From contig JBDRCO010000087.1 in assembly GCA_043821645.1 (NCBI GenBank), positions 128,001 through 192,000 of the forward strand: a stretch of 64,000 bases of DNA, given 5' to 3'. Shown piece after piece: positions 49,837-62,862 of the stretch. Every line of letters begins with the position of its first letter. Position 1 is the first letter of the stretch. Both the position numbers and the translations under genes were made by a program. Source of the stretch: Pseudomonadota bacterium. GTDB taxonomy: Bacteria; Myxococcota; JACRCW01; JAFGSX01. The notes beneath the pieces are model-generated. The model saw only the letters and a program-made list of their open reading frames with translations, was not told where the DNA came from and made no database searches.

Positions 49837-49950
49837 CATCTCGACGCAAAAGAAAGTGCCGTCGCCGAAAATCGCGTGCCGCGCTGCGCCATGGATGACG
49901 CTCCGCGGCGACAGAGCGTTCACAGTACAAAGGCGGAGCAGGCTGCGATC

Positions 49951-51762
49951 ATGAGCGAGAAGAAGGTCGAGGACCCCATCCTGAACAGCGTGGTGGCGGG
50001 TCGCTACGAGGTCTACGCCAAGCTGGGAGAGGGCGGCATGGGCGCTGTGTATGCCGCCCGGCAGGCCCCCCTGGGCCGCACCGTCGCCCTCAAGGTACTG
50101 CTCAAGCAGCTGTCCAAGGACCCCATCGCCATCAAGCGTTTCGAGAAAGAGGCGCTGGCCATCAGCAGACTGGCCCACCCCAACACCGTCACCATCTTCG
50201 ACTTCGGCACCACCGATCAGGGCCTGATGTACATCGCCATGGAGTTCCTCGAGGGACGCTCCCTGCGCGACGTGATTGGCAACGAGGCACCGCTGCGCCC
50301 TCGGCGGGTCGTGCGCATCCTGGCGCAGATGGTGCGAGCGCTCAGCGAGGCGCACCAGCGCGGCGTGATTCACCGCGACCTCAAGCCCGACAACATCATG
50401 CTGGTACCTACCGCCGGCGAGCCCGACTTCGTCAAGGTGCTCGACTTTGGCGTGGCCAAGCTGCGCGCGCCCGAAGGTGGCCCCGCGGTCAAGACCCTGA
50501 CCCAGGGCGACGTCATCTTCGGCACGCCGCGCTACATGAGCCCCGAGCAGGTCAACGGCATCATGGACGACCCCCGCAGCGATCTGTATGCGGTGGGTGC
50601 CATCGCCTACGAGATGCTGGCCAGCGTGCCTGTGTTCGATGGCGATTCGGCCATGACCATTCTCATCAAGCAGGTCCAGGACCCGCCGCGGCCCTTTGCT
50701 CGCCTGCCCAGACCCATCGAGGTGCCCGAGGCGCTCGAGGCGCTGGTGCTGCGCTTGCTATGCAAGGATCGCGAGCAGCGAATCCAGAGCGCGGATGCAC
50801 TGCTCGAGGCCCTCGACGAGTTACCTGTGCTCGGTGGCGGTCTGCGCCCTGCCTCCGGGCGTACCGAGACCATGGTCAAGCCCATGTTGACTCCCGACGC
50901 CACGCCGCGGGTGGGTACGGAGCTGATGGGGAGCAACTTCGCCCGCCCGCCAGCCCCCCTGCCGGGCGGTTCCGGCGCGGAGACAGCGGCGCTGAGTCCG
51001 CCCGCCACGGCACCGTCACCGGGGGCGGCCGAGCTGGCCGCAACCATCCCACCGAGCGAGGGGACAGCTCCGGTGCGCCGTTCTCCTGTCGCGCCGGCAC
51101 CAGCCACTTCTACCGACGACGACGTGGAGCTGCCGCGCCGCCGCGGGGGGCTGTGGCTCGCCCTGGCGGGTGGCTTGGTGCTGGTTGCTGCGGTGACGGT
51201 GTGGGCCCTGTCCGGTGACAAGGCGGCGCCGTTTCCGGACGACACCTCGGTGGCTGCACCTGCCCAGGCAGCCCTCGCGATCGTGGTCGAACCCGAGGGT
51301 GCCCTGATCACCGTCGACGGCGAACTTCGTGGTCAGGCTCCGCAGACCGTGCAGGTGTCCACCGGGCGCAGCCACCTGATCGAGGCCACGCTGGCGGGAT
51401 ATCTCCCTCAATCGAAGCAGGTGGCTGTCGAGCAGGCCACCCGCGTGGTCTTGAGCCTGCAAGCGGAGTCCCGTGACGTCGGGCCAGCGCCGGGCGAACG
51501 CGATGCAGGAGCCACCTCGCCCGGTGTCCGTCCCGGGACCGGAGCCAGGCCTGTCCCCGGCGCCACGAAAGGCAAACCCGATGCGGCGCAGGCGACGGCT
51601 GAACCGCAGCCCCAGGTCACCCCCGAGCCGAAGCCGGAGCCAAACCCGGAACCCAAGCCCGAACCCAAGCCCAAGCCGGAGGCCAAGCCGAAACCCAAGC
51701 CGGGGTTCGAGATCGACGACAGCGACTTCGAGAAGTTCGACGAGTTCAAACCCATCGAGTGA
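49951..51762 (+). CDS. Membrane Hanks-type Ser/Thr kinase with PEGA domain and EPKP-rich tail
   Basis: LGEGGMG, VALK, HRDLKPDN, DFG, GTPRYMSPE; single TM; PEGA; (EPKP)n tail. Confidence 0.93.
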   Translation: MSEKKVEDPILNSVVAGRYEVYAKLGEGGMGAVYAARQAPLGRTVALKVLLKQLSKDPIAIKRFEKEALAISRLAHPNTVTIFDFGTTDQGLMYIAMEFLEGRSLRDVIGNEAPLRPRRVVRILAQMVRALSEAHQRGVIHRDLKPDNIMLVPTAGEPDFVKVLDFGVAKLRAPEGGPAVKTLTQGDVIFGTPRYMSPEQVNGIMDDPRSDLYAVGAIAYEMLASVPVFDGDSAMTILIKQVQDPPRPFARLPRPIEVPEALEALVLRLLCKDREQRIQSADALLEALDELPVLGGGLRPASGRTETMVKPMLTPDATPRVGTELMGSNFARPPAPLPGGSGAETAALSPPATAPSPGAAELAATIPPSEGTAPVRRSPVAPAPATSTDDDVELPRRRGGLWLALAGGLVLVAAVTVWALSGDKAAPFPDDTSVAAPAQAALAIVVEPEGALITVDGELRGQAPQTVQVSTGRSHLIEATLAGYLPQSKQVAVEQATRVVLSLQAESRDVGPAPGERDAGATSPGVRPGTGARPVPGATKGKPDAAQATAEPQPQVTPEPKPEPNPEPKPEPKPKPEAKPKPKPGFEIDDSDFEKFDEFKPIE

Positions 51763-52763
51763 TCATGCGATCAGCACTGCATATCGGATTGACCGGGTGG
51801 ATGCTGCTATCGGTGGCGGGGTGTGGCCTTTTTGTCGATCGCCTGCCCGAGGGCGTGGTGCTCGATCGCACCGTGCAGGATCGCTTCGTGAACCTCGACG
51901 GCGTCAAGCATCACTACCGGGAGTGGCCAGGTCCGGGGCGCGATATCTTCCTGCAGCACGGCTTTGGCTCTTCGACCTACACTTGGGAGTGGCTGGCGCC
52001 GCAGCTCAACGCAGCGGGGTACCACGTCTGGGCCCTCGACCTGCGCGGCTTTGGCTGGTCCGACAAGCCCCAGGACGCCGCCTACGATCCCCGGGCCCTG
52101 CTCGCGGACATGCACCACTTTCTCGACGACAAGGGCCTGCGCGACCTCATCTTGATCGGGCATTCCCTGGGCGGTGGACTGGCCTGGATGACGGCCGTCG
52201 AGAGACCCGACCTGGTGCAGCGCCTGGTGCTCATCGACGCCGCTGGCTACACCGGCAGCGTGCCCGCGGTGATTCACCTGGCCAGCTGGCCTCTGGCCGA
52301 CCAGCAGATGGAGCTGGTGTTCGGACGCTGGGCTGTGCGCTGGGTGCTGGGCGAGGTCTACCAGCAGGACAGCTTGCTCACCGATGACCGCGTCGACGCC
52401 TACTACGATCGCCTGCGCACCCGGGGCATGCTGCACGCGCAGGCCGAGCTGTCTCGCAGCTTGCTCGACGAGACCATGCACCGGATGAGCCAGCGCATCC
52501 CCGAGGTGCAGCAGCCCACCTTGATCCTGTGGGGCGCTCACGACATCTGGCTCCCGCCTGAGCAGGGTCAGCGCTTTCATCAGGACATCGCGGGTTCGAG
52601 GCTGCAGGTGCTGGACTGCTGCGGTCACATGCCGCAGGAGGAATCGCCCGAGGAGGTGGCGCGACTGATCCTGGACTTCTTGCGCAGCACCGAGCCCGTC
52701 GAGGGACTGACGACGTCTGCCCCCGCTTCACAACCCTCAGGGGCCGAGGCCGAGCGTCCCTAG
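51759..52763 (+). CDS. Alpha/beta hydrolase lipoprotein
   Basis: Lipobox VAGC, HGFG, DLRGFGWS, GHSLGG, WGAHD, CGHMPQEE. Confidence 0.9.
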   Translation: MIMRSALHIGLTGWMLLSVAGCGLFVDRLPEGVVLDRTVQDRFVNLDGVKHHYREWPGPGRDIFLQHGFGSSTYTWEWLAPQLNAAGYHVWALDLRGFGWSDKPQDAAYDPRALLADMHHFLDDKGLRDLILIGHSLGGGLAWMTAVERPDLVQRLVLIDAAGYTGSVPAVIHLASWPLADQQMELVFGRWAVRWVLGEVYQQDSLLTDDRVDAYYDRLRTRGMLHAQAELSRSLLDETMHRMSQRIPEVQQPTLILWGAHDIWLPPEQGQRFHQDIAGSRLQVLDCCGHMPQEESPEEVARLILDFLRSTEPVEGLTTSAPASQPSGAEAERP

Positions 52764-53393
52764 CGCGTTCTTCGTGGCGGGCGCCTGGACCTCACCGCGG
52801 TCGATGAGCGCGGCCAGCCGCACCAGATCCTTCAGCTCGTCCACGTCGAACCAGGGCGGCAGCAGCACGGGGCGCATGCCATTGTCGACCAGCCTGCGCT
52901 GCGTGGCCTGCGCGGTCGTGGGCGCGCTCCAGGGCAGATCCGCCAGCAGTCCCGCAGGGCATCGCCTCAGTGCCAGCAGGTAAAACCCCCCGTCGTCACT
53001 GGGTCCAAGCACGGCGTCGTGTCCGGCGACAAACTCGGCACGGCACTGCTTGAGAAACGCGACCGGGAGTCCCGGTGTGTCTGCACCCAGGGCGATGGCG
53101 ACGTCGGCATCCTGCAGGGCCCGTCGCAACACGCGCTCGATGCGTGCGCCCAGATCGCCTTCACCCTGTTCCCACTGCAGGTTCGCCGGGACGCCGTCGA
53201 CGGGTCCGGTGCACGCGAGCACGCGGCGGACCCAGCTCAGTTGCCGCAGGGCCGCCCAGCTGTCGTCGAGAAAGGCCTGCGCCAGGGTGACCGCTGCATC
53301 GTCACCCAGTGGGGCAGCCAGGCGTGTCTTGACCTGCCCGGCAACGGGGGGCTTGGCAAACAGGCAGCAGGTGATGCGCGGGTCAGCGGCCAC
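52737..53393 (-). CDS. DUF2064 / CofC-like nucleotidyl- or glycosyltransferase-fold protein
   Basis: FAKPPVAGQVKTRL, QGEGDLGAR, GADTP, LGPSDDGGFYL, WFDVDE. Confidence 0.85.
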   Translation of the reverse strand: MAADPRITCCLFAKPPVAGQVKTRLAAPLGDDAAVTLAQAFLDDSWAALRQLSWVRRVLACTGPVDGVPANLQWEQGEGDLGARIERVLRRALQDADVAIALGADTPGLPVAFLKQCRAEFVAGHDAVLGPSDDGGFYLLALRRCPAGLLADLPWSAPTTAQATQRRLVDNGMRPVLLPPWFDVDELKDLVRLAALIDRGEVQAPATKNALGTLGLGP

Positions 53394-53711: not shown

Positions 53712-53935
53712 TGTGACCTCCAGTCGAAGGGACCATGTCGGCACCTGGCAAGCACCGAGAACGCACTGCCAGGGAGACCCATAAATACCCGGCTTTGGGA
53801 TGGGAATAGTGCACTGAGAGTGTTTTCATTGATGAAGTGCTCAACTATCGCAACCCGGACCTTGCACATGGCAGATTGACGAACCATCGTCTAAATTTGC
53901 TGCTGCTGGGTTCCGAGACCACCCACGAGAGGCGA

Positions 53936-54364
53936 ATGACCGCGTTCCCGCTCCACTGCCATTCCCCGAGCCTAGCATTCCGTGTCGAAGCGGAAAGCCC
54001 GCGTTTTCTTGCTCTTTGTGCGCGAGGCACCAGCATGGCCCCAGCATTGCGCAGCGGTGACTGGCTGCTGGTCGACGTGCAGGCCTCGGCGCCTCGCCCT
54101 GGCGAGATCTGGTGCTGCCACATCACAGGGCGTGTGGTTGCGCATCGGATTGTGTCCGTGGAAGAACGAGATGGCCGGACCTGGATTCGCTCTTGCAGCG
54201 ACGGCGGTCGGCTGGACCCCTGGACCGACAGCACCATTGGCCGGGTCGTCCTCGGGCTTCGCGAGGGCAAGCTATTCGATATCCCACGGAGGCCCCTGCG
54301 ACGCCGCCTCGCCTGGCTGAGGCGAACCGTCGCGGGCGCGCGCAGCCTGGGACGGGTGGCCTGA
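53936..54364 (+). CDS. S24/S26 family (signal-peptidase-like) peptidase
   Basis: RGTSMAPALRSGD (catalytic Ser) and VVAHRIV (His); ATG follows GAGAGG; no TM segment. Confidence 0.78.
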   Translation: MTAFPLHCHSPSLAFRVEAESPRFLALCARGTSMAPALRSGDWLLVDVQASAPRPGEIWCCHITGRVVAHRIVSVEERDGRTWIRSCSDGGRLDPWTDSTIGRVVLGLREGKLFDIPRRPLRRRLAWLRRTVAGARSLGRVA

Positions 54365-54369
54365 CCACG

Positions 54370-54660
54370 ATGGCCAGGATCTCGCCACCTCGCCGCGCTG
54401 CCGACGTGTCGTGGCGCGAGATCGGTCAGGATGTGGTGGTCGTTCCCATCCGAACCTCGGTCGATCAACCTCTGTGCGTGCACACGCTCAACTCGGTGGG
54501 CGCGTTCATCTGGTTGCTGCTGGATGGAAACCTGACCGAGCACGAGATCGCCGCGCGCGTCGCCGAGCAGTTCGAGGTTGACGAGCAGCGGGCGTATGTC
54601 GACCTGCGGGACTATCTCGAGGAGCTGGCCGCCAGCGAGCTGCTGGAGTCGGACGGATGA
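54370..54660 (+). CDS. PqqD family / RiPP recognition element (RRE)
   Basis: WREIGQDVVVVP..TLNSVGAFIWLLLDG..EIAARVAEQFEVD..DLRDYLEEL; 96 aa. Confidence 0.9.
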   Translation: MARISPPRRAADVSWREIGQDVVVVPIRTSVDQPLCVHTLNSVGAFIWLLLDGNLTEHEIAARVAEQFEVDEQRAYVDLRDYLEELAASELLESDG

Positions 54661-55769
54661 GCAGCATGCTGCAGCAGCTTCCGGTTGAACCCACCTCGCC
54701 AGCCCCGGACGACGTCCTGGCTCGTGCGCTGCGGGGCACACGCGTCCCCTTCGCGGGGAACTTCGAGCTGACCCTGCGCTGCAACCTGAACTGTAGCCAC
54801 TGCTACCTTGGGCAGGACCGCGTCCGCGCCGAGCTTCCGACCGACGAGGTGCTGCGCATCCTCGACGAACTGGCCACGGCCGGTACCCTGGTGCTCGCGC
54901 TCACGGGGGGCGAGCCCCTGCTCAGGCCCGACTTCGAGATCATCTACCTGCACGCGCAGCGTCGGGGCTTCTTGCTCAGTGTGTTCAGCAACGGCATCGC
55001 CCTGACCCCACGACACGTCGAGATGTTCTGCGCTGCGCCACCGCGCGCCATCGAGATCTCCCTGTACGGGACCTCGGACGAGGACTATCTCCACGCCACG
55101 GGGTATCGCATCGCGTTCGGAAATCTTGACCGCACGCTGCGGTCCCTGCGCGACGCTCGGCTTCCGGTCCGACTCAAGACCATGGCCACGCGCACTCTCG
55201 GCCCACGCCTCGACGACATGCGCGCCTATGCCCGTGAGCTGGGCATCCCCCTGCAGTTCGGAACCGTCCTGTTCAGCGCGCGCGATGGCAGCCCGGGCGC
55301 TGATGGTGAGCGCCTCGACGCCGGGGCTGCGGTGGCCTTCGAGGCCCAGCCTGACGTCTTGTGTTACCTGGTCGAGCGCGATCGCGCCACCATGCCGACC
55401 CAGGACAGCCGGCGCGTCACCTGCGGAGCGGGGCGGGTCGCCTTCAGCATCGATCCCGCGGGGGTCATGCGCCGCTGCAGCGCCCTGCCCGTCAAGGCCA
55501 CCCCGGCTGCAAGTCTCAAGCACCTCAGCGTGCAGGAAGCCTGGCGAGCTCTCGGTGAGCAACTCGAGTGCGAGCTCCCGCGTGACCACCCGTGTCGAGG
55601 CTGCGTGCTGCGGCACCTCTGCAACCGATGCGAGGCCACGTTCTCGCCTTCCGTCCAGGTCGAGATGTGCGCGCATGCTCACGCGCGAGCGCGGCAGCTT
55701 GGCCACTGCGTGCCCGGAGACCCACCGCTACGCGCGTACCTGTCGCACGAGGAGTCTGCCGATGAGTGA
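54657..55769 (+). CDS. Radical SAM/SPASM-domain peptide maturase
   Basis: ELTLRCNLNCSHCY (CxxxCxxC), LTGGEPLLRPDF; SPASM CGAG..SIDPAG..C and CRGCVLRHLCNRC..C. Confidence 0.92.
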   Translation: MSSMLQQLPVEPTSPAPDDVLARALRGTRVPFAGNFELTLRCNLNCSHCYLGQDRVRAELPTDEVLRILDELATAGTLVLALTGGEPLLRPDFEIIYLHAQRRGFLLSVFSNGIALTPRHVEMFCAAPPRAIEISLYGTSDEDYLHATGYRIAFGNLDRTLRSLRDARLPVRLKTMATRTLGPRLDDMRAYARELGIPLQFGTVLFSARDGSPGADGERLDAGAAVAFEAQPDVLCYLVERDRATMPTQDSRRVTCGAGRVAFSIDPAGVMRRCSALPVKATPAASLKHLSVQEAWRALGEQLECELPRDHPCRGCVLRHLCNRCEATFSPSVQVEMCAHAHARARQLGHCVPGDPPLRAYLSHEESADE

Positions 55770-55938
55770 GAAGAAGAAGCAGCCAAAGCCGGCGCGGCGT
55801 CCATACCAGCGACCTCAGGTGCACAGGGTCCCCGTGTCGTCGGAAGAGGCCCTGCTGGCCGTGTGTCCTCTCAACGCGGGGGGCGGCACGCAGGGCTTCG
55901 AGGGCGCACCCTGTAGTGCCTGCTTCACGGCGAGCTAG
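55762..55938 (+). CDS. Putative RiPP precursor peptide (58 aa)
   Basis: MSEKKKQPKPARRPYQRPQVHRVPVSSEEALLAVCPLNAGGGTQGFEGAPCSACFTAS; GAGGAG RBS at 55749; overlaps the rSAM stop; YxxP leader motif and three Cys. Confidence 0.8.
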   Translation: MSEKKKQPKPARRPYQRPQVHRVPVSSEEALLAVCPLNAGGGTQGFEGAPCSACFTAS

Positions 55939-55946
55939 GTCGCGCG

Positions 55947-56840
55947 ATGAACAACCACGGCTTTACCTTGCGCCTGGGGCCATTGGGGCTGCACCTGCGG
56001 GGCGATCTCGACCCCGCCGAGCTGCCTCTGCCCGCTCGACCCTTTGTCGACGAGCCCCGCGAGGATGACCTGCTCGTCGAGACACAGCAGTTTCAGGATC
56101 GTGCGCGACAGTCCCCTAAGGGCTCCGATGCCCTGTCGTGGCGAGGTGAGCGTCGTGGCGATGAGCTGGCCTTCGCAGCCCACGCCTCGCCGGCCTCGCC
56201 GCCGCTGGCCTTGGCGACCCTGCGACCGGTGGGCGCGACCCTGCATCGTCGCCCCGAAGACAGCCGGCAGGTCGAGCCGGCCTGGTTCAACCCCCTGCTC
56301 CAGGTGCTGACGGCTCACGCTGCACCTCGCCGGCAGGGTCTTCTTCTTCACGCAGCCTGCGTCCAGCTGCGCGGTCGCGCCTGGCTGCTGGCAGGATCGT
56401 CGGGGTCGGGCAAGTCTACCCTGGCTTCGGCGCTGACCCGCCATGGCGGGCATATCCTCGCCGACGACCGCTCACTGGTCTTTGCGGGGCCACAGCCGGT
56501 CGCCTGCGGCACGCCCTGGGGTGGTGAGCCGGCTCTCAAGCGCGCCGGTACGATCGCGCTGGGGGGCATCCTCTTCGTGCAGCATGCGGATGAGGACGCT
56601 CTGCTCCCCCTCTCGCCAGTGGCGGCGAGCGCGCAGCTCCTGGCCGTGGTGCTCGGCCTGTTTTGGGACAGGACCCTGCTGGACCAGGCCATGGCCCTGG
56701 CGTGTGGGCTGGGTGGCGCGGGGCTGTGCTGGAGGTTCCGTGCTACAGTGTCCGGCCGTGCGCCTGAGTGCCTGCTCTCGCTGTGTGATCGCCTGGAGGA
56801 CCGACGAGTGCGCCAGGTCACGAACGAGGAGGCGGCATGA
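55947..56840 (+). CDS. HPr-kinase-related P-loop protein
   Basis: LLLHAACV, Walker A GSSGSGKST, ILADDRSLV, GTPWGGE. Confidence 0.82.
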   Translation: MNNHGFTLRLGPLGLHLRGDLDPAELPLPARPFVDEPREDDLLVETQQFQDRARQSPKGSDALSWRGERRGDELAFAAHASPASPPLALATLRPVGATLHRRPEDSRQVEPAWFNPLLQVLTAHAAPRRQGLLLHAACVQLRGRAWLLAGSSGSGKSTLASALTRHGGHILADDRSLVFAGPQPVACGTPWGGEPALKRAGTIALGGILFVQHADEDALLPLSPVAASAQLLAVVLGLFWDRTLLDQAMALACGLGGAGLCWRFRATVSGRAPECLLSLCDRLEDRRVRQVTNEEAA

Positions 56841-59800
56841 CCGCTACAGCTTCTCGCGCACGTCGGACAGTTCACCTCTGGTGGCTCGGCGTGGTCCTGG
56901 CTGCGTGGCCGGCAGGAGCGCACGCCCAGGTCTTCTTCACGCCGACCATCGACGGCAGCAACGCCGAGTGGGGGAGTCAGTTCCACTACCTTGACGGCAA
57001 TGAGGCCGACACGCTGATCCCGGACAATCGCGACATCCGTGTGACCTACGTCGCCAACGACGCCACCTATCTGTACTTTGGCATCGAGACCTACGCCAGC
57101 ATGGGCAACATCGATAGCTTCAACCTGTACATCGACCGCGACAACGACGGTGGGGGGTTTGACTCTAATGACCGCGTCATTGGCGTCGACGTGAACACCA
57201 CCCTCAGCTGCACGGGTCTTCGGGTGTACACGGTCGACGGCAGCGGCACCCCGACTGGAAACGGCACCAATGTTGGCTGCAACAACAACTATGCTCGAGT
57301 TGGCTCCTTTGTCGAGGTCCGGGTCCTCCTCGCCAGGATAGGCATCGGCAGTTCCCCGACCGTCGGCGTGATCTCGGCCATCCGGCCGGTGACGGGCAGC
57401 TACTTCAACGTCTCGCCCAGCCCGCCCTTTCCGACATGGATGCTGTACAACAACACCGGCACCATCACCCCGACCCTGATCCGCGTTACCGCGCTGCAAG
57501 CCAGCGCCAAGGTCGCAGGTGTGGACGTCGAGTGGAGCACATCCGGCGAGCTGCTCAGCCTCGGCACCTGGGTACTCCGGCAGACCGCGCAGGGCGAGTG
57601 GCAGCCCGTGGGCGGCGGTCCGAGCCCCACCGGAATGGCCGTGGCCGGCGCGCGCTACAGGCTGGTGGACCCAGGAGGGCAGGCCGGCGACCGCTATGCC
57701 CTGGCCGAGGTCGACGCCAGGCAGCAGGTCCTGTTCTTTGGCCCCGTCGTCGCCAGCGCGGAGGACAGCCCCGGCAGGCCCATCCGCCAGCAACAGCAGC
57801 TCTGGCGAGGCGTGCCGCACCTCGGCACCACCCGGGGCGCCCTGCGCTCTGTCGAGCCTATCGGGAGCGCGGGCCCCAGAGTCCTGAGCGCGCCGCTGCC
57901 GCCGCTCGCCATGCAATGGCCGCCGCAACGCCGGTCCGTGCCTGAATCTGTGCTGCGCGTACGCGTGTTCGAGCCCGGTCTGCATGTGGTGTGTGATGAC
58001 GACCTGTGGCGATCGGGCTGGCAAAGGGCGGTTCCCGTCGTCACCCTGCAAGACCGCCCCTTGCCGGTGTGGCGCGTACCTGCCCGGCTCGCGGGCTGCC
58101 CTGGTCACGCGTTCTATGCGGCCCAACCGGCTTCGCCCCACGCACCTTTTGAGGCGTACCAGCTCAGGCCCGCGCGCCGCGGCACCCGCTATCCTGCGCT
58201 GCCCGAACCCGGGCGACGTGCGAACGCACCAGCGCGATCCCACTCTGTGGAGCAGCGCTCGCTGCGCCTGGCAAGTCCCACCTTCATCGACATGGGCGAT
58301 GGTTCGCCCAACCGCTTCTTCAGGCAGTGGGTCGCAGGCTTTGCCCCGCTGGACCTGGCTGCCCATCTCCCCGGCGCAGTGGCTGGCGCCGACGTCGTCA
58401 TGAAGGTGGACCTAAGACCGAGTCTCGTCGAGCCCGGCAGTGTGCACGAGCTGGTCGTCACCCACGGAGGCGGCCAGGTGAGCTCCCTGGCCGAGGGACC
58501 GGGTTGGCGCACGGTCGAGCTCACCCTGCCAGGTGCGGCGAGCGAGGAGCTGGCCCTGCAGCTCACCAGTGTCGACAACGGGCTGCTGTACGGAGGCGTG
58601 CTGGTCGGCGATACCGTGCTCGAGTACCCGGGCCGGCTGGCGCTGGAGCAGGGGCGCCTGAGCTTCGAAGCGACCGGTCCTGGCTGGGCCCTGGTCGGGG
58701 ACCGCACCAGTGATCAGGTGCTGGCCCTCGACGTCAGTGACCCGCTCACGCCGCTGCCGCTGCAGGTGAACCTGGTGGGCACGGCGCAGGTCGCGGTTCA
58801 ACTGGCACCCACGCGAGGGGTGCCGAGACGGGTGCTGGTGCTGGAGTGCTCGACGCTGCCCACGGCTGTGCTCGAGCGGGTCGAGACCGATCCTGCTATC
58901 GACGCTGCTAGCACCCACGGCGAGTATCTGGTGCTCGGACACGGAGCCTTGTTGCCGTCGCTGCAGCCCCTGGTCGAGCTGCGGCGCCAGCAGGGTCTGT
59001 CGGTTCAGGTGCTGTCACTGCAGGCGGTGTACGATCGCTTCAGCTTCTCGCAGACCGATCCGCGCGCCATTGCTGCGCTGCTGGCGTGGGCGCGGGAGCA
59101 CTGGGCCGCGCCGCCGCGCTTCATGCTGCTGGTGGGCTCGACCTCCTATGACCCCTGGGGCTACCAGGTGGGCTCGCCGGCTGCCGACGCGCCCATCCAG
59201 ACGCACTGGCTTGACAGCCTCGATCACCGCGCGTGGAGCGACTCGCTGCTGGTGGCCGACGCGGCAGGTCTGCCTCGCGTGGCCGTGGGGCGTTTGCCCA
59301 GCTCGGACCCCGTGGCCCTCGCGCGCTACGTGGCCAAGGTCGTGGACTACGAGGCCAGTCTAGCCACCTTGGGGCGCACCGGGGATGTGCTGGCGCTAGC
59401 AGGCCGCTCGCAGTTTGCGGCGGACCCGGACTTTGCGGTCCTGGCCTCGGCGCTGGCGGAAACCACGGGACTGGCAGCCGTCCCCATCGCGACCGGCGCA
59501 CCTGGCGCCGCTGAACAACTGAGTGCTACATGGCCGCTAGCCGAGCTGGTGCTGTACGTGGGACACGGCGACGCACAGGGCTGGGCCGACGACGCGCTCG
59601 ACCTGCAGAGCCCGGCCACGCTGTCTTCGCAGCGTCCTCCCGTGGTGATCAGCGCCACCTGCATGGATGGCATGTTCATGCGCCCGACGGGGAGCCTGGC
59701 CTGGGCGCTGCTGGACACGGCGAGCGACACGGGCGCCTCCCTGGCCATTAGCGCGACCAGCTTGCTTGATCCCAACGTGGCCTCTGGTTTTACTCAGCGC

Positions 59801-59944
59801 TTGCTGCAAGAAGCCCAGGGTGCCACCTGGGGCGAGGCATGGCTCGCGGCCCAGCTCGCTTCCGGTGACGAGATGGCGCACAGCATGGTTCTCATCGGCG
59901 ATCCCGCGCTGACCGCGCGCCTGCCCGCACCCCAGCACCCCTGA
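56837..59944 (+). CDS. Secreted multidomain protein with C-terminal C25 (gingipain-like) cysteine peptidase
   Basis: Signal peptide AHA|Q; N-terminal DOMON/CBM9-like region; EYLV..LQPLVELRRQQG, FMLLVG, VAVGRLP, YVGHG, SATC, LIGDP. Confidence 0.82.
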   Translation: MTATASRARRTVHLWWLGVVLAAWPAGAHAQVFFTPTIDGSNAEWGSQFHYLDGNEADTLIPDNRDIRVTYVANDATYLYFGIETYASMGNIDSFNLYIDRDNDGGGFDSNDRVIGVDVNTTLSCTGLRVYTVDGSGTPTGNGTNVGCNNNYARVGSFVEVRVLLARIGIGSSPTVGVISAIRPVTGSYFNVSPSPPFPTWMLYNNTGTITPTLIRVTALQASAKVAGVDVEWSTSGELLSLGTWVLRQTAQGEWQPVGGGPSPTGMAVAGARYRLVDPGGQAGDRYALAEVDARQQVLFFGPVVASAEDSPGRPIRQQQQLWRGVPHLGTTRGALRSVEPIGSAGPRVLSAPLPPLAMQWPPQRRSVPESVLRVRVFEPGLHVVCDDDLWRSGWQRAVPVVTLQDRPLPVWRVPARLAGCPGHAFYAAQPASPHAPFEAYQLRPARRGTRYPALPEPGRRANAPARSHSVEQRSLRLASPTFIDMGDGSPNRFFRQWVAGFAPLDLAAHLPGAVAGADVVMKVDLRPSLVEPGSVHELVVTHGGGQVSSLAEGPGWRTVELTLPGAASEELALQLTSVDNGLLYGGVLVGDTVLEYPGRLALEQGRLSFEATGPGWALVGDRTSDQVLALDVSDPLTPLPLQVNLVGTAQVAVQLAPTRGVPRRVLVLECSTLPTAVLERVETDPAIDAASTHGEYLVLGHGALLPSLQPLVELRRQQGLSVQVLSLQAVYDRFSFSQTDPRAIAALLAWAREHWAAPPRFMLLVGSTSYDPWGYQVGSPAADAPIQTHWLDSLDHRAWSDSLLVADAAGLPRVAVGRLPSSDPVALARYVAKVVDYEASLATLGRTGDVLALAGRSQFAADPDFAVLASALAETTGLAAVPIATGAPGAAEQLSATWPLAELVLYVGHGDAQGWADDALDLQSPATLSSQRPPVVISATCMDGMFMRPTGSLAWALLDTASDTGASLAISATSLLDPNVASGFTQRLLQEAQGATWGEAWLAAQLASGDEMAHSMVLIGDPALTARLPAPQHP

Positions 59945-59992
59945 TCCCTCGCAGCGGCGGTCCAAGGCTCCAGCTTGCGGCCCGCACCCTGT

Positions 59993-60913
59993 TCAGATCC
60001 GCGGCCTGAGCCTTTCGACCAGCGCGGTCACGTCCTTGGCGCTGCGCTGCCAGCCGCGCGCCACCACCAGATTCTCCAGATCAAAGGCCAGGGCCTCGCA
60101 GCTGTCGTGGCGCTTGCGGCTCTTGCGCTGCAGGGCCTGGCGCAGGATGGCGTCGAGCTCGGACGGCACCTCGTCGTAGATCTTGCTGGCCGCCGGGATG
60201 TCGGCGTCGCGCACGCGCAGCGCCTGCTCCAGGTCGCTCTCTCCATCGCGCAGGGCGTAGGGCCTCAGCCCGGTGACCATCTCGTAAAGGATCAGGGCCA
60301 GGGCGAACAGGTCGGCGCGGCCGTCCAGGTGCTCGCCGCGGATCTGCTCGGGCGCCATGTAGGCGATCTTGCCCTTGACCCCGCCCAGCACCGAGGTCAC
60401 GGACTCCAGCTTGCCCAGCTTGGCGATGCCGAAGTCGGCCACCTTCACCTGGCCAGCGCGGGTCAAGAAGATGTTGTCGGGGGAGACGTCGCGGTGCACC
60501 AGCTCGAAGTGGCGCCCCGACGGGCTGCAGGCCTCATGCAGGTAGTGCAGGCCGCGACAGGCCTCGATGGCGATGTGCAGGGCCAGGGGCGTGTCGATGA
60601 TCCCGTCCTGCTCCGGACCCTCGCGCAGGGCGTGAGCCAGGTCCAGCCCGTCGATGAGCTCCATGGCAATGTAGTAGTGCCCCTGCACCTCGTCGGATTC
60701 CAGGGTGTTGACCAGGTTGGGGTGATGCAGCAGCACGCTGATGTCGGCTTCGGTCAAAAACAGGTCCAGGGCCTTGGACTGCGCTTCCATCTCTGGACGC
60801 AGGCGCTTGAGCGCCACGTCTTCGCGGTGGCCGTCCTTGCGCGCGCGGTACACGTCGCACATGCCACCCGAGCCAATGCGCTCGATCAGGTTGTAGCGGC
60901 CAAGGCGTTCCAT
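59993..60913 (-). CDS. Cytoplasmic Hanks-type Ser/Thr kinase
   Basis: IGSGGM, VALKR, VHRDVSPDN, DFGIAK, KGKIAYMAPEQ. Confidence 0.93.
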   Translation of the reverse strand: MERLGRYNLIERIGSGGMCDVYRARKDGHREDVALKRLRPEMEAQSKALDLFLTEADISVLLHHPNLVNTLESDEVQGHYYIAMELIDGLDLAHALREGPEQDGIIDTPLALHIAIEACRGLHYLHEACSPSGRHFELVHRDVSPDNIFLTRAGQVKVADFGIAKLGKLESVTSVLGGVKGKIAYMAPEQIRGEHLDGRADLFALALILYEMVTGLRPYALRDGESDLEQALRVRDADIPAASKIYDEVPSELDAILRQALQRKSRKRHDSCEALAFDLENLVVARGWQRSAKDVTALVERLRPRI

Positions 60914-61119
60914 GAGGCCGCCATGCTACCGCGAAAACCTTCAGGGAACAGGCTCAACTGAGGTGCTGTCAGATCCCCTGGAGGCCGCGTCCGTTGGCAG
61001 GGTGTAGGATCTGGCCAGGGGCCGGAAATGCCATCTCGCCCGGCTGCGGTTGTAGGTGAGACAGCCGACGTGCAAGCTCAAAGGGGAGGGACCCGGTCCC
61101 CCCGGGTGGAGGAAGAAAC

Positions 61120-62862
61120 ATGAAGCGCCACGCGATGCCGCTCCTGCTTGGCTCGACCCTGCTCTCCGCGGCCGCCCTGGCCGAACCCGGGGGCTTCTTC
61201 GACATGGGGGCCGACGACCAGCCTACCCAGGTGCTGGTGGATTTCACCGAGGTCGACGCCCAGGGCCTGAGCGAGCTGGCCAAGTCCATGGGCGTCAACC
61301 TGCGCTTCAACTCCGAGTTCAGCGACGCCGACGAGAACTTCGCGGTGGTCGAGGCCGACAGCCCCGGCATGGTGCAGCGCCTGATCTCCCTGTTCCAGGG
61401 CCGCGCCGACGTCGAGTCGGTGGAGCCCAACTACGTCTACCACGGCCTGTTCACGCCCGATGACCCCATGCTCAAGCACCAGTGGCACATGGACATGATC
61501 CACATGGCCGACGCCTGGGCCAAGGCCCGGGGCCGCGGCGTGGTGGTGGCGGTGATCGATACCGGCGTGTCCGACGGCAAGGGCAAGCTCAAGCCTGTCG
61601 AGGATCTGGACCCGGACCGCTTCGTGCCCGGCTACAACTTCGTCAGCGACAGCCCCGACGCCAGCGACGACCACGCCCACGGCACACATGTGGCTGGCAC
61701 CGTGGCCCAGAGCACGGACAACGGCAAGGGCGTGGCCGGCGTGGCCTTCGAGGCGCGCATCATGCCCATCAAGGTGCTCAGTGCCCGGGGCGGCGGCACC
61801 GTGTCCGACATCGCCGAGGGCATACGCTGGGCCGTGCGCCACGGCGCCGACGTCATCAACATGTCGCTCGGCGGACCCTTTCCGTCGCTGGCCCTGGCCC
61901 GCGCCGTGGCCTACGCGCGCTCGCACGGTGTGGTGGTGGTGTGCGCGGCCGGCAACAGCGGGCGCAAGGGTGTGGGCTATCCCGCGGCCCATTCCGGCTC
62001 CATTGCGGTCAGCGCCCTGGGGCCCGACAAGACGCTCAGCTTCTACTCGTCCTGGGGCAAGCAGGTGGCCATCGCCGCGCCCGGTGGCGATACCCGCGTG
62101 GACCTGAACAACGATGGCATTCCCGACGGCGTGCTACAGAACACGATCGTCCCGGGCGACCCCTCGCGCCAGGGCTACTTCCCCTTCCAGGGCACGTCCA
62201 TGGCCTCGCCCCACGTCGCTGGCGTGGCGGCGCTGATCATCGGCCAGGGCATCACCAGCCCCGACAAGGTGCAGGACATCCTCGAGGGCAGCGCCGAGAG
62301 CCTGGGCGACGGTGAGAAGTACGGTGCCGGCATGGTCGACGCGGCGGCCGCGGTATCGCGCGCCATCTGGCGACCTGGTCTGCTGCGTGCCCTGCTCATG
62401 GTCATCCTGGCCTGGCTACTGGCGCGCATCATCCGTACCAGCGACCGCATGTCGTCGTCGGTGGTGACGCCGGGCTTCGTGCTGGCCCTGGTTGTGGGCG
62501 CCTGCGGCCTGTTCTTCCTGCGTGGCTTCGAGACCACGCTGTGGCCGCTGTTCGTGGTCACCAGGCCCGCCCTCGAGTGGCCGGCTGCCCTGCTGGGCTG
62601 GAACTGGCACCTGAACGCTGTGGTGGGTTCGGCCTTGCCCGCCTTCGTGGTTGGTCTGCTGCTGTACGGCATCAAGCCGCTGCGGCCGCTCGCCGCGGGC
62701 TTCGCCGTAGGCGTGAGCGCCTACCTGCTGGCCTGTGCCGTCGACGGCAGTGTCAACGTGCGCTGGGTGCCGGGCGCCGGCGGTCTCTTCGATCGCGCGT
62801 GGCTGGCGGGCAATGCCCTGCTCACCTTCGGCATGGCGCGCATGATGGTTCCCCGACGCTGA
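61120..62862 (+). CDS. S8 subtilisin-like serine protease with C-terminal multi-TM anchor
   Basis: Signal peptide and prodomain; VIDTG, HGTHVAG, AAGN, GTSMASPH; about five TM helices at the C-terminus. Confidence 0.93.
   Translation: MKRHAMPLLLGSTLLSAAALAEPGGFFDMGADDQPTQVLVDFTEVDAQGLSELAKSMGVNLRFNSEFSDADENFAVVEADSPGMVQRLISLFQGRADVESVEPNYVYHGLFTPDDPMLKHQWHMDMIHMADAWAKARGRGVVVAVIDTGVSDGKGKLKPVEDLDPDRFVPGYNFVSDSPDASDDHAHGTHVAGTVAQSTDNGKGVAGVAFEARIMPIKVLSARGGGTVSDIAEGIRWAVRHGADVINMSLGGPFPSLALARAVAYARSHGVVVVCAAGNSGRKGVGYPAAHSGSIAVSALGPDKTLSFYSSWGKQVAIAAPGGDTRVDLNNDGIPDGVLQNTIVPGDPSRQGYFPFQGTSMASPHVAGVAALIIGQGITSPDKVQDILEGSAESLGDGEKYGAGMVDAAAAVSRAIWRPGLLRALLMVILAWLLARIIRTSDRMSSSVVTPGFVLALVVGACGLFFLRGFETTLWPLFVVTRPALEWPAALLGWNWHLNAVVGSALPAFVVGLLLYGIKPLRPLAAGFAVGVSAYLLACAVDGSVNVRWVPGAGGLFDRAWLAGNALLTFGMARMMVPRR

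Follow-up and report, generated by a model that had tools for sequence, protein, structure and literature searches.

The operon and its precursor gene

The 64,000-nt stretch of DNA analysed here (the window; contig JBDRCO010000087.1 of the myxococcotal assembly GCA_043821645.1) contains at 55762-55938, on the plus strand, a 58-codon open reading frame (ORF) that appears to encode the precursor of a RiPP, a peptide that ribosomes make and that is modified post-translationally. The operon around it was defined by Pfam and NCBIfam scans of the 13 ORFs between 49.9 and 62.9 kb and by a reading of starts and stops. All on the plus strand, it encodes a signal peptidase I (SpI)-like peptidase, a PqqD-type RiPP recognition element (RRE), a radical S-adenosylmethionine (rSAM)/SPASM enzyme, the precursor, an HprK-like kinase and a C25 peptidase. 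We hold it very probable that the ORF is the precursor of a conserved, unnamed RiPP cassette made up of these genes, with the C25 peptidase as an optional member.

The genes are tightly packed, with intergenic gaps of at most 8 nt and overlaps at three junctions. The SpI-like protease (53837-54364; S24/S26 clan, archaeal/SipW type) matches PF00717 over the cut-off (27.2 bits, E 3.2e-6), and its start is uncertain, being either the GTG at 53837 or an internal ATG at 53936. It is followed by a discrete RRE of the PqqD family (54370-54660, 96 aa; Pfam PqqD, E 6.8e-15) and by an rSAM/SPASM peptide maturase of 370 aa without a fused RRE (54657-55769; Pfam Radical_SAM, E 5.5e-22). Downstream of the precursor lies an HprK-related P-loop kinase (55947-56840, 297 aa), recognized by weak NCBIfam HprK-type matches and by the motifs GSSGSGKS and ILADDR. 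The last gene encodes a secreted cysteine peptidase of the C25 family (56837-59944, 1035 aa; Pfam Peptidase_C25, E 6e-38), with a Sec-type signal peptide ending in AHA before Q and weak PorU-like matches; its ATG overlaps the kinase stop.

Translation of 55762-55938 gives MSEKKKQPKPARRPYQRPQVHRVPVSSEEALLAVCPLNAGGGTQGFEGAPCSACFTAS, followed by TAG. Residues 1-33 (55762-55860) form the predicted leader, and residues 34-58 (55861-55935) form the predicted core. A GAGGAG ribosome-binding site (55749-55754) was read directly 7 nt 5' of the ATG, and the ATG overlaps the TGA stop of the rSAM gene (55767-55769) by 8 nt. The mechanical ORF list gives this frame only as a 270-aa ORF with a TTG start (55126..55938), which the original prediction had called spurious. 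Base composition agrees with that view: the upstream part has GC contents at the first, second and third codon positions (GC1/2/3) of 0.55/0.81/0.75, a non-coding type, and the overlapping alternative frames are also unlike the neighbouring genes. The 58-aa part (0.64/0.56/0.80) resembles those genes. The small ORF with its own ribosome-binding site is present exactly as had been claimed, with coding-type codons, and the residues singled out earlier (Y15-Q-R-P18-Q-V20, E28-E-A-L-L-A33, V34-C35, C51, C54 and S58) all lie where they had been placed, which also confirms the C-x15-C-x2-C spacing of the core.

A conserved precursor family and its linked enzymes

A word-indexed search with the single 58-aa peptide matched only itself, and an order-level genome search (two genomes) gave no match besides the window's own. 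A search with the rSAM enzyme across 401 genomes of the phylum returned 30 loci in 26 genomes at E<=1e-30. Short ORFs beside homologous rSAM genes, the comparison that the original prediction had proposed, were found in 27 of these 30 loci, with both YxxP and Cys conserved. The small ORF lies directly downstream of the rSAM gene in 24 loci and directly upstream in three loci of one genus. In these three (L019:1285-1467, L020:2502-2684, L021:1287-1469), it sits about 20 nt upstream of the rSAM gene, right after the apparent end of a C25-type gene. Two of the three loci without a small ORF end at a contig edge 63 and 135 nt past the rSAM gene, and the third (L032) has different neighbours.

An alignment of the 27 same-phylum peptides (A1) showed P18 to be invariant and Y15 (Trp in one peptide), E29 and C35 to be at least 90% conserved. 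Among 1.84 billion representative proteins, 1813 match the A1 profile at E<=1e-3, and 77 of them reach E<=1e-10. The 1813 matches are clusters at 50% identity and form an upper estimate with some false positives, and several of the top matches are input sequences. Two long repetitive proteins among the top matches (P0002, 945 aa; P0007, 1938 aa) were reached through many short stretches and are apparently unrelated. In the source annotation, family peptides are all either 'hypothetical protein' or uncalled. No Pfam or NCBIfam model covers the peptide, and the rSAM, RRE and kinase reach no curated NCBIfam cut-off.

Features of the family were counted in the 148 listed A1-profile matches of <=115 aa. 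Tyr and Pro of the YxxP motif are present in all 148, and the fifth position after Tyr is Leu, Ile or Val in 97%. The window peptide carries the motif as Y15-Q-R-P18-Q-V20 (55804-55821), a form of the RRE-binding-type motif [Y/W]xxPx[L/V/I], and YxxP emerges from the alignments as the most conserved feature of the whole precursor family. Cys35 (55864-55866), the first core Cys, lies 20 residues after Tyr15, and this exact distance is kept in 141 of 148 matches. Lys follows the first Cys directly in 138 of 148, and Pro takes its place in the window peptide. Exactly three Cys follow the motif in 134 of 148; their usual spacings are x12 and x5, versus x15 and x2 in the window, where Cys51 and Cys54 (55912-55923) form a C-x2-C. 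Both the leader motif and the core Cys named in the original prediction are family features. The peptides also share their last residue, which corresponds to Ser58 in the window (55933-55935), the proposed phosphorylation site: it is Ser in 140 of 148 (118 as Gly-Ser) and Thr in four. Of the 27 peptides in A1, 25 have a terminal Ser, and the other two finish with Thr and with Ala.

Anchored on Tyr, the family consensus reads [RK]-[KR]-P-Y-x-x-P-x-[LIV]-x-x-[VI]-x-L-x-x-[ED]-E-A-V-L-G-x-C-K. Gly, Ser, Ala, Thr and Pro abound in the cores, Asp makes up 2% and Glu 1%, and both Tyr and Trp are absent; the pattern is C-x12-C-x5-C-x3-G-S. Outside the Cys and the Gly-Ser end, both the sequence and the length of the cores vary strongly. 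A divergent subgroup without Lys after the first Cys comprises the window peptide and its three closest relatives (L009-L011).

The A1 profile finds exactly two precursor copies in the window's own genome. A six-frame search of this genome had given a weak second peptide match on contig C3 (E 0.003), with an rSAM paralogue directly upstream. This second cassette (G000:C3:8889-10180; L036, L041, L134) comprises an RRE, an rSAM, a peptide and an HprK-like gene, with a C25 gene about 4 kb further. Its rSAM is ~33-35% identical to that of the window, and its 61-aa peptide belongs to the mainstream type, having Cys-Lys and ending in Gly-Ser.

A single 9-residue pattern, taken from a narrower alignment of mainstream members (A3), led to at least 517 loci that were confirmed in species-representative genomes. 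The 80 best-ranking of these all come from metagenome-assembled genomes (MAGs), mostly of Acidobacteriota and Polyangia/Myxococcales, and represent the mainstream subfamily, not the subgroup of the window. Family members also occur on contigs labelled as Bathyarchaeia, Patescibacteria group and Eubacteriales MAGs (L060, L130 and L104), by either binning error or real spread. All family counts come from related genomes and hence are not independent events.

Enzyme genes were counted at two scales. In 16 same-phylum loci, tblastn with the window proteins found rSAM in 16, HprK in 16, PqqD in 15, C25 in 12 and the S24-like protease in 7, the last an underestimate because the window query is divergent. 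Of the 80 peptide-anchored loci, 69 span >=11 kb, and among these 69 profile searches detected rSAM in 68, HprK in 68, PqqD in 67, SpI-like protease in 65 and C25 in 26. The gene order in peptide-anchored loci is RRE, rSAM, peptide, kinase and peptidase. In the three loci scanned, the upstream neighbours were unrelated housekeeping genes (cytochrome bd and PGI; urease; TonB receptor/PfkB/DeoR). The precursor is strictly linked to four enzyme genes, as counted in the 69 loci (at least 517 loci overall). The secreted C25 peptidase, present near the cassette in 12/16 same-phylum and 26/69 wider-family loci, is an accessory or optional member.

Selection on the ORF was examined in close precursor pairs, where the ratio of nonsynonymous to synonymous changes (pN/pS) was 0.18-0.26 in four pairs and 0.48 in a fifth, more diverged pair. 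Two further pairs (L023/L027 and L034/L022) were misaligned and are not counted. Changes in close pairs are concentrated in third codon positions and, along the peptide, in the part N-terminal to the YxxP motif. An untranslated frame left open by chance at the tail of the spurious 270-aa ORF would fit with the GC-rich DNA, in which spurious ORFs are common (100 ORFs of >=40 aa in 12 kb), and with the RNA run examined, which gave no evidence of expression. Such a frame would not be expected to keep its sequence, position and length across phyla, to be under purifying selection, or to have a ribosome-binding site and a coding-type codon composition. We consider this explanation extremely improbable, as the alignment, the profile matches, the linkage counts and pN/pS already contradict it. 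The translated sequence, the ribosome-binding site, the stop/start overlap, the codon composition, the conserved homologues and the low pN/pS show the gene to be real, and these comparisons mark the 58-aa ORF as a genuine precursor-type gene under purifying selection.

Predicted recognition, modification and leader removal

The RRE resembles those of lasso peptide systems. As a single sequence, the window RRE had its best PDB match in TbiB1 (6.2e-6), and a profile from an alignment of 16 RREs (A2) matched TbiB1 (1.5e-14), 9x90_B (9.4e-10), 9x8z_B (6.5e-9) and TfuB1 (6.7e-8), with PqqD proteins at 1.8e-4 and worse. The NCBIfam lasso_PqqD models remained below cut-off (26.8 bits vs 70). These matches support placing the discrete RRE in the clade of lasso B1 proteins and of the linear polyphosphorylated peptides (LPP). 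According to PMC13381572, 9x8z is LppB with the LppA leader and 9x90 is PbaB1 with the PbaA leader, and TbiB1, PbaB1, LppB and TfuB1, all crystallised with leaders, are winged helix-turn-helix RREs that hold a [Y/W]xxPx[L/V] leader in two hydrophobic pockets. In LppB, D70 is described there as hydrogen-bonding the leader Tyr, F74 as packing on the leader Pro and M78 as lying in the second pocket. The role of the YxxP-type motif in lasso and LPP leaders is treated in passages of PMC13381572 and PMC10368454, the latter placing YxxPxL at positions -17 to -12 of lasso leaders.

In the window RRE, D78 (without variation in A2), Y82 (where most relatives have Phe) and L86 (>=90% conserved) align with D70, F74 and M78 of LppB as these are given in PMC13381572, and this match lends indirect support to the same binding mode. 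In the first proposed step, the discrete RRE would bind the leader through P-Y15-x-x-P18-x-V20 and the following beta-strand, like lasso B1 proteins and LppB. Homology makes binding through Y15, P18 and V20 highly probable.

The rSAM enzyme carries CNLNCSHC, a C-x12-G-x4-C segment, C-x2-C-x5-C-x2-C and a later Cys. Among its homologues, CxxxCxxC is present in 74/77 and the SPASM Cys pattern in 74/77. Its best PDB match is SkfB (2.7e-12), and its best NCBIfam matches are MftC (78 bits), PqqE, NirJ, SkfB and AlbA, all far under their cut-offs. Thioether formation is the commonest chemistry for pairs of rSAM/SPASM enzymes and Cys-containing cores. In the second step, the RRE-bound precursor would be presented to the rSAM/SPASM enzyme, which would modify the Gly/Ser-rich core at or through the three Cys. 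By analogy, thioether cross-links are put forward tentatively, at about even odds, as the most likely outcome. The sacti-/ranthipeptide-type Cys core of the original prediction is a conjecture from an rSAM/SPASM gene beside a Cys-bearing precursor; no curated maturase model was passed and no conserved acceptor was seen.

The same enzyme matches suggest another product, an intracellular factor of the mycofactocin/PQQ kind (a cofactor derived from the peptide, or a small redox factor) instead of a secreted peptide. The rSAM would then act at the C-terminal Gly-Ser or at a Cys, and the RRE would serve as it does in MftB/PqqD. The best matches of the window rSAM include MftC (7.1e-22) and PqqE, and mainstream members reach 95-105 bits with MftC over nearly the full length. 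In addition, an exporter or immunity gene was not found in the window operon or in four other loci, the cassette occurs in one or two copies per genome across many soil phyla, and the C-terminal dipeptide is conserved, as in MftA-type precursors. Against this, the MftC-type scores are far under the cut-off (78-105 bits vs 265; 78 for the window rSAM, for which PqqE gives 69 vs 381), and the core is highly variable except for the Cys and the Gly-Ser end, unlike cofactor precursors. In cofactor precursors, the target residues are the C-terminal Val-Tyr (mycofactocin) or Glu-x3-Tyr (PQQ); Tyr is absent from the window core and makes up 0% of family cores. The RRE is also of the lasso/LPP clade, with PqqD itself 10 orders of magnitude worse, the leader peptidase and kinase of the paeninodin/LPP toolkit are core genes, and a large secreted protein usually follows the cassette. 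A cofactor precursor is therefore considered improbable, and a modified peptide product remains the preferred reading.

The kinase was assigned through motifs and fold. Its NCBIfam matches were TIGR04352 HprK_rel_A (E 4.1e-10), TIGR04355 (2.8e-8) and ScmC (4.3e-8), all below cut-offs; matches to HprK models were weak and centred on the P-loop region, and an HprK profile run against PDB sequences gave mostly ABC transporters, matched at the P-loop. The motifs GSSGSGKS and ILADDR could be aligned with L. casei HprK/P, and among homologues Walker A is present in 72/76, followed by [SA]D[DE] in 72/72. An AlphaFold model built from a 10-sequence alignment had a mean predicted local distance difference test score (pLDDT) of 83.8. 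Every listed PDB match of this model in Foldseek was either an ATP-dependent phosphoenolpyruvate carboxykinase (PEPCK) or HprK/P (E 9e-6 to 5e-4), with modest TM-scores of 0.23-0.52. The model supports an HprK/PEPCK fold for the window kinase.

In paeninodin-type lasso systems, HprK homologues are described in parts of PMC8498205 and PMC6993621 as phosphorylating, sometimes repeatedly, the C-terminal Ser side chain of the linear precursor, and PMC8498205 reports little specificity of such kinases for the rest of the peptide. The HprK-like kinase would, as the third step, phosphorylate the Ser58 hydroxyl in the same way, possibly several times. Ser58 was chosen because the terminal Ser is near-invariant, the lasso systems provide a precedent, and Ser and Thr are both missing from the 8 residues of the window core nearest the predicted cleavage site, T43 being the first such residue. 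On this analogy, phosphorylation of Ser58 is slightly favoured.

The kinase could instead act, as in LPP, on a Ser or Thr that lies immediately past the cleavage site, or on another internal hydroxyl of a real precursor, the terminal Ser being kept for another reason such as recognition by the rSAM or the peptidase or for export. LppK targets Ser3 of the core, and LPP is the only characterised system with SpI, RRE and HprK components. In the present family, the residue two places past the first Cys is Thr or Ser in 53% of members. This position is not conserved, however, and the window core lacks Ser and Thr until T43, whereas the sole near-invariant hydroxyl is the last residue (Ser and Thr together in 144/148). 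The disregard of lasso-type HprK kinases for the remaining peptide, as described in PMC8498205, also argues for the terminus. We regard an internal phosphosite as unlikely, with Ser58 retained as the candidate.

The last proposed step is removal of the leader. Cleavage sites of signal peptidases follow the -3/-1 rule. The EEALLA|VC junction of the original prediction, itself a predicted cleavage site, fits this signal-peptidase-I pattern, and an SpI-like gene in the operon could provide the activity. Position +18 from Tyr is Gly, Ala or Ser in 82% of members, with Val or Leu at the -3 position. The window protease has the motifs GTSMAP, AHRIV and SDGG, and across its family G.SM.P is found in 72/72, H[RK][VILM] in 72/72 and [RTK]GD in 61/72. 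TIGR02228 (sigpep_I_arch) matched the window protease below cut-off (E 9.7e-4) and matched its homologues in 6/6 related loci at 7e-16 to 1e-7, two of which pass the cut-off. In LPP biosynthesis, as PMC13381572 describes it, LppS (S29/H68/D93) cleaves the leader only with LppB. In the fourth step, the SpI-like Ser-His-Asp peptidase would remove the leader after A33 (L31 at -3, A33 at -1), like the RRE-assisted LppS. For this step, we judge the chances evenly balanced.

Relation to described systems and genomic surroundings

Among described systems, the nearest is that of LPP (LppA/B/K/S of Bacillota; Popov et al., Nat Commun 2026, PMC13381572), whose clusters, as described there, contain an SpI-like peptidase, an RRE that is discrete, a kinase similar to HprK, a nucleoside triphosphate (NTP) transferase and a pump resembling MsbA. 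By that account, the two systems share a discrete lasso-type RRE, a YxxPx[V/L/I] leader, an HprK-like kinase and an archaeal-type SpI-like Ser-His-Asp peptidase. Neither has a lasso cyclase or B2 peptidase, and one of the four PDB chains that best match the RRE family is LppB (9x8z).

The two also differ. An rSAM/SPASM gene is core here (68/69 loci), whereas LPP has none, and the terms radical, SPASM, C25 and Myxococc are absent from the main text of PMC13381572. The core here is ~25 aa, Gly/Ser-rich, with three conserved Cys and a Ser end; LPP cores are described as variable with a phospho-Ser at position 3, and no conserved Ser follows the junction here. The LPP leader sequence VLxHQxIxFETxxS is also absent, only YxxPx[LIV] being shared with a +6 to +18 consensus of x-x-[VI]-x-L-x-x-[ED]-E-A-V-L-G. 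An NTP transferase and an MsbA-type exporter were not found in the operon or in four further loci, the search being limited to these and not extended to all 69. A DUF2064/TIGR04282 gene in the window (52737-53393, minus strand) was considered as an LppN-like NTP transferase and rejected; it is transcribed divergently from the operon, on the opposite strand, and has a counterpart in 0/16 related loci. Hosts of the present family are Acidobacteriota, Myxococcota and others, versus Bacillota for LPP; the authors of PMC13381572 call LPP and paeninodins restricted to that phylum.

Paeninodin-type lasso peptides (PadeK, PsmK, BsfK) share the [Y/W]xxPxL leader with a discrete B1 RRE, an HprK homologue and a precursor ending in Ser, and their kinases are described as phosphorylating the C-terminal Ser before folding (portions of PMC8498205, PMC6993621 and PMC10368454). 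The operon here has no Asn-synthetase-like macrolactam synthetase and no transglutaminase-like B2 leader peptidase, the kinase is distant (TIGR04352, 39 bits vs a cut-off of 200), and the core has no ring-forming Asp or Glu at positions 7-9, its sole acidic residue being E47 at core position 14. Neither a lasso cyclase nor a B2 peptidase came up in the scan of 13 ORFs between 49.9 and 62.9 kb; in the whole genome (94.7% complete), PF13471 had no match above cut-off, and no genome-wide search was made for the cyclase family itself.

Sacti- and ranthipeptide systems (AlbA, SkfB, PapB, StsB) are alike in their rSAM/SPASM enzyme with a full set of auxiliary-cluster Cys and in their Cys-containing core, and SkfB is the best solved match. 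They differ in that the RRE here stands as a lasso-type protein of its own and does not form the N-terminal part of the rSAM, and in that a kinase and an SpI-like peptidase are present. The SynChlorMet (ScmC/D/E/F) and GeoRSP systems of TIGRFAMs/NCBIfam combine PqqD-like, rSAM/SPASM and HprK-like proteins in one cassette, with weak matches here to ScmC, ScmD, ScmE and GeoRSP models. To our knowledge, neither has a known precursor. Scores against cut-offs were 33/125 bits for ScmC, 23/100 for ScmD, 50/400 for ScmE, 43/400 for ScmF and 53/400 for the GeoRSP rSAM; the present cassette has one rSAM instead of two and includes an SpI-like peptidase.

By the defining features tested, which are features of sequence, the cassette belongs to none of the lasso, LPP, sacti-/ranthipeptide, mycofactocin/PQQ and SynChlorMet families. 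Its composition is that of a hybrid, in which LPP/paeninodin-type recognition, kinase and leader peptidase components are combined with a sacti-/ranthipeptide-like rSAM/SPASM enzyme and a Cys core. The original prediction proved correct for the most part, and its precursor, lasso-type YxxP recognition and Cys were retained here; the HprK-like kinase, the near-invariant terminal Ser, the SpI-like protease and the strong kinship with LPP and paeninodins had been absent from that prediction. No paper joining an HprK-type kinase, an RRE and an rSAM/SPASM enzyme in one RiPP cluster was found in a search that excluded subscription-only papers and supplements. The main texts of PMC7470986 (RRE-Finder) and PMC12710340 were without HPr, kinase, Acidobacteria or, respectively, Myxococc or signal peptidase. 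Non-Bacillota SpI-RRE clusters could be in Supplementary Data 1-2 of PMC13381572, which were outside the literature search. In its gene content, the cassette represents an RRE-dependent RiPP system with a new enzyme combination and a new precursor family.

We tentatively suggest that the cassette could be the founding example of a new RiPP class in soil and groundwater Acidobacteriota and Myxococcota. In this class, a lasso/LPP-type RRE would deliver one short three-Cys core to an rSAM/SPASM cross-linker and to a kinase that (poly)phosphorylates the C-terminal Ser, before RRE-guided leader removal by an SpI-like peptidase. If this is true, no characterised RiPP would resemble the product, a peptide with cross-links and a phosphorylated C-terminal Ser. 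This product may also have a functional link with the large secreted protein, of C25, LamG or DUF11 type, encoded after the cassette.

Several observations weigh against the main reading of a precursor processed in the four proposed steps. The window peptide is atypical of its family, with Pro for Lys after the first Cys, odd Cys spacing (x15, x2) and a TAS instead of a GS end, and 2/27 same-phylum peptides terminate in Ala or Thr. Among curated sacti-/ranthipeptide maturase models (AlbA, SkfB, StsB, PapB), none is reached by the rSAM (47-79 bits vs 300-850), its best NCBIfam scores belong to the cofactor/heme enzymes MftC, AhbD, NirJ and PqqE, and no conserved acceptor residue is visible in the family cores. 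Residue 192 of the window kinase is Gly, where >=90% of relatives have His in GTPWHG, and LppK, according to PMC13381572, polyphosphorylates Ser3 of the LPP core and not the C-terminus. An exporter was not found among the 13 window ORFs scanned or in four other loci. No listed RNA run contains the stretch; one RNA run over 55600-56100 gave no RNA contig, and three DNA runs gave identical contigs with partial cover, a result that speaks neither for nor against expression.

The cassette is abundant (1813 clusters as an upper estimate; at least 517 species-level genomes), mostly in uncultured Acidobacteriota and Polyangia, yet invisible to annotation. Apart from lasso peptides and the LPP family of 2026, no systems were previously known to use the RRE, kinase and SpI-like parts; here the [Y/W]xxP/RRE module, the HprK kinase and the SpI-like peptidase appear also to be coupled to radical SAM chemistry, far outside Bacillota. 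With the precursor defined exactly, its cleavage site predicted and candidate residues for modification named, the proposal is directly testable by heterologous expression and mass spectrometry.

Downstream of the cassette there is often a large secreted-type protein with DUF11/CARDB, LamG or C25 domains. Specifically, a LamG/Stig1 protein follows in L089 and a LamG-C25 protein of 1512 aa in L055. In several Acidobacteriota loci (L058:6996-12179, L065:6851-12175 and L114:6844-12177; also L059, L067 and L097), no stop codon separates the SpI-like frame from more than 1700 aa of DUF11/CARDB/integrin-Ig repeats. This continuous frame, which leaves the locus, represents either a fusion or a pair of genes that share a frame.

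In the window, the cassette is flanked by Ser/Thr protein kinase genes at 49876-51762 (plus strand) and 59993-60913 (minus strand), one of them with a PEGA domain. The ORF at 59975-60961 on the plus strand is probably spurious; the opposite ORF at 59993-60913 is preferred, with a GC3 of 0.92 and a resemblance to Ser/Thr kinases. Ser/Thr protein kinase genes also lie a few kb from the cassette in three other loci of the same phylum (L042, L043 and L049). About 1.2 kb past the operon, an S8 subtilase gene (61120-62862, plus strand) matches the mycosin-like model TIGR03921 below cut-off (E 1.6e-59) and encodes a C-terminal DUF5942 domain; an S8 gene is also found near the cassette in L050.

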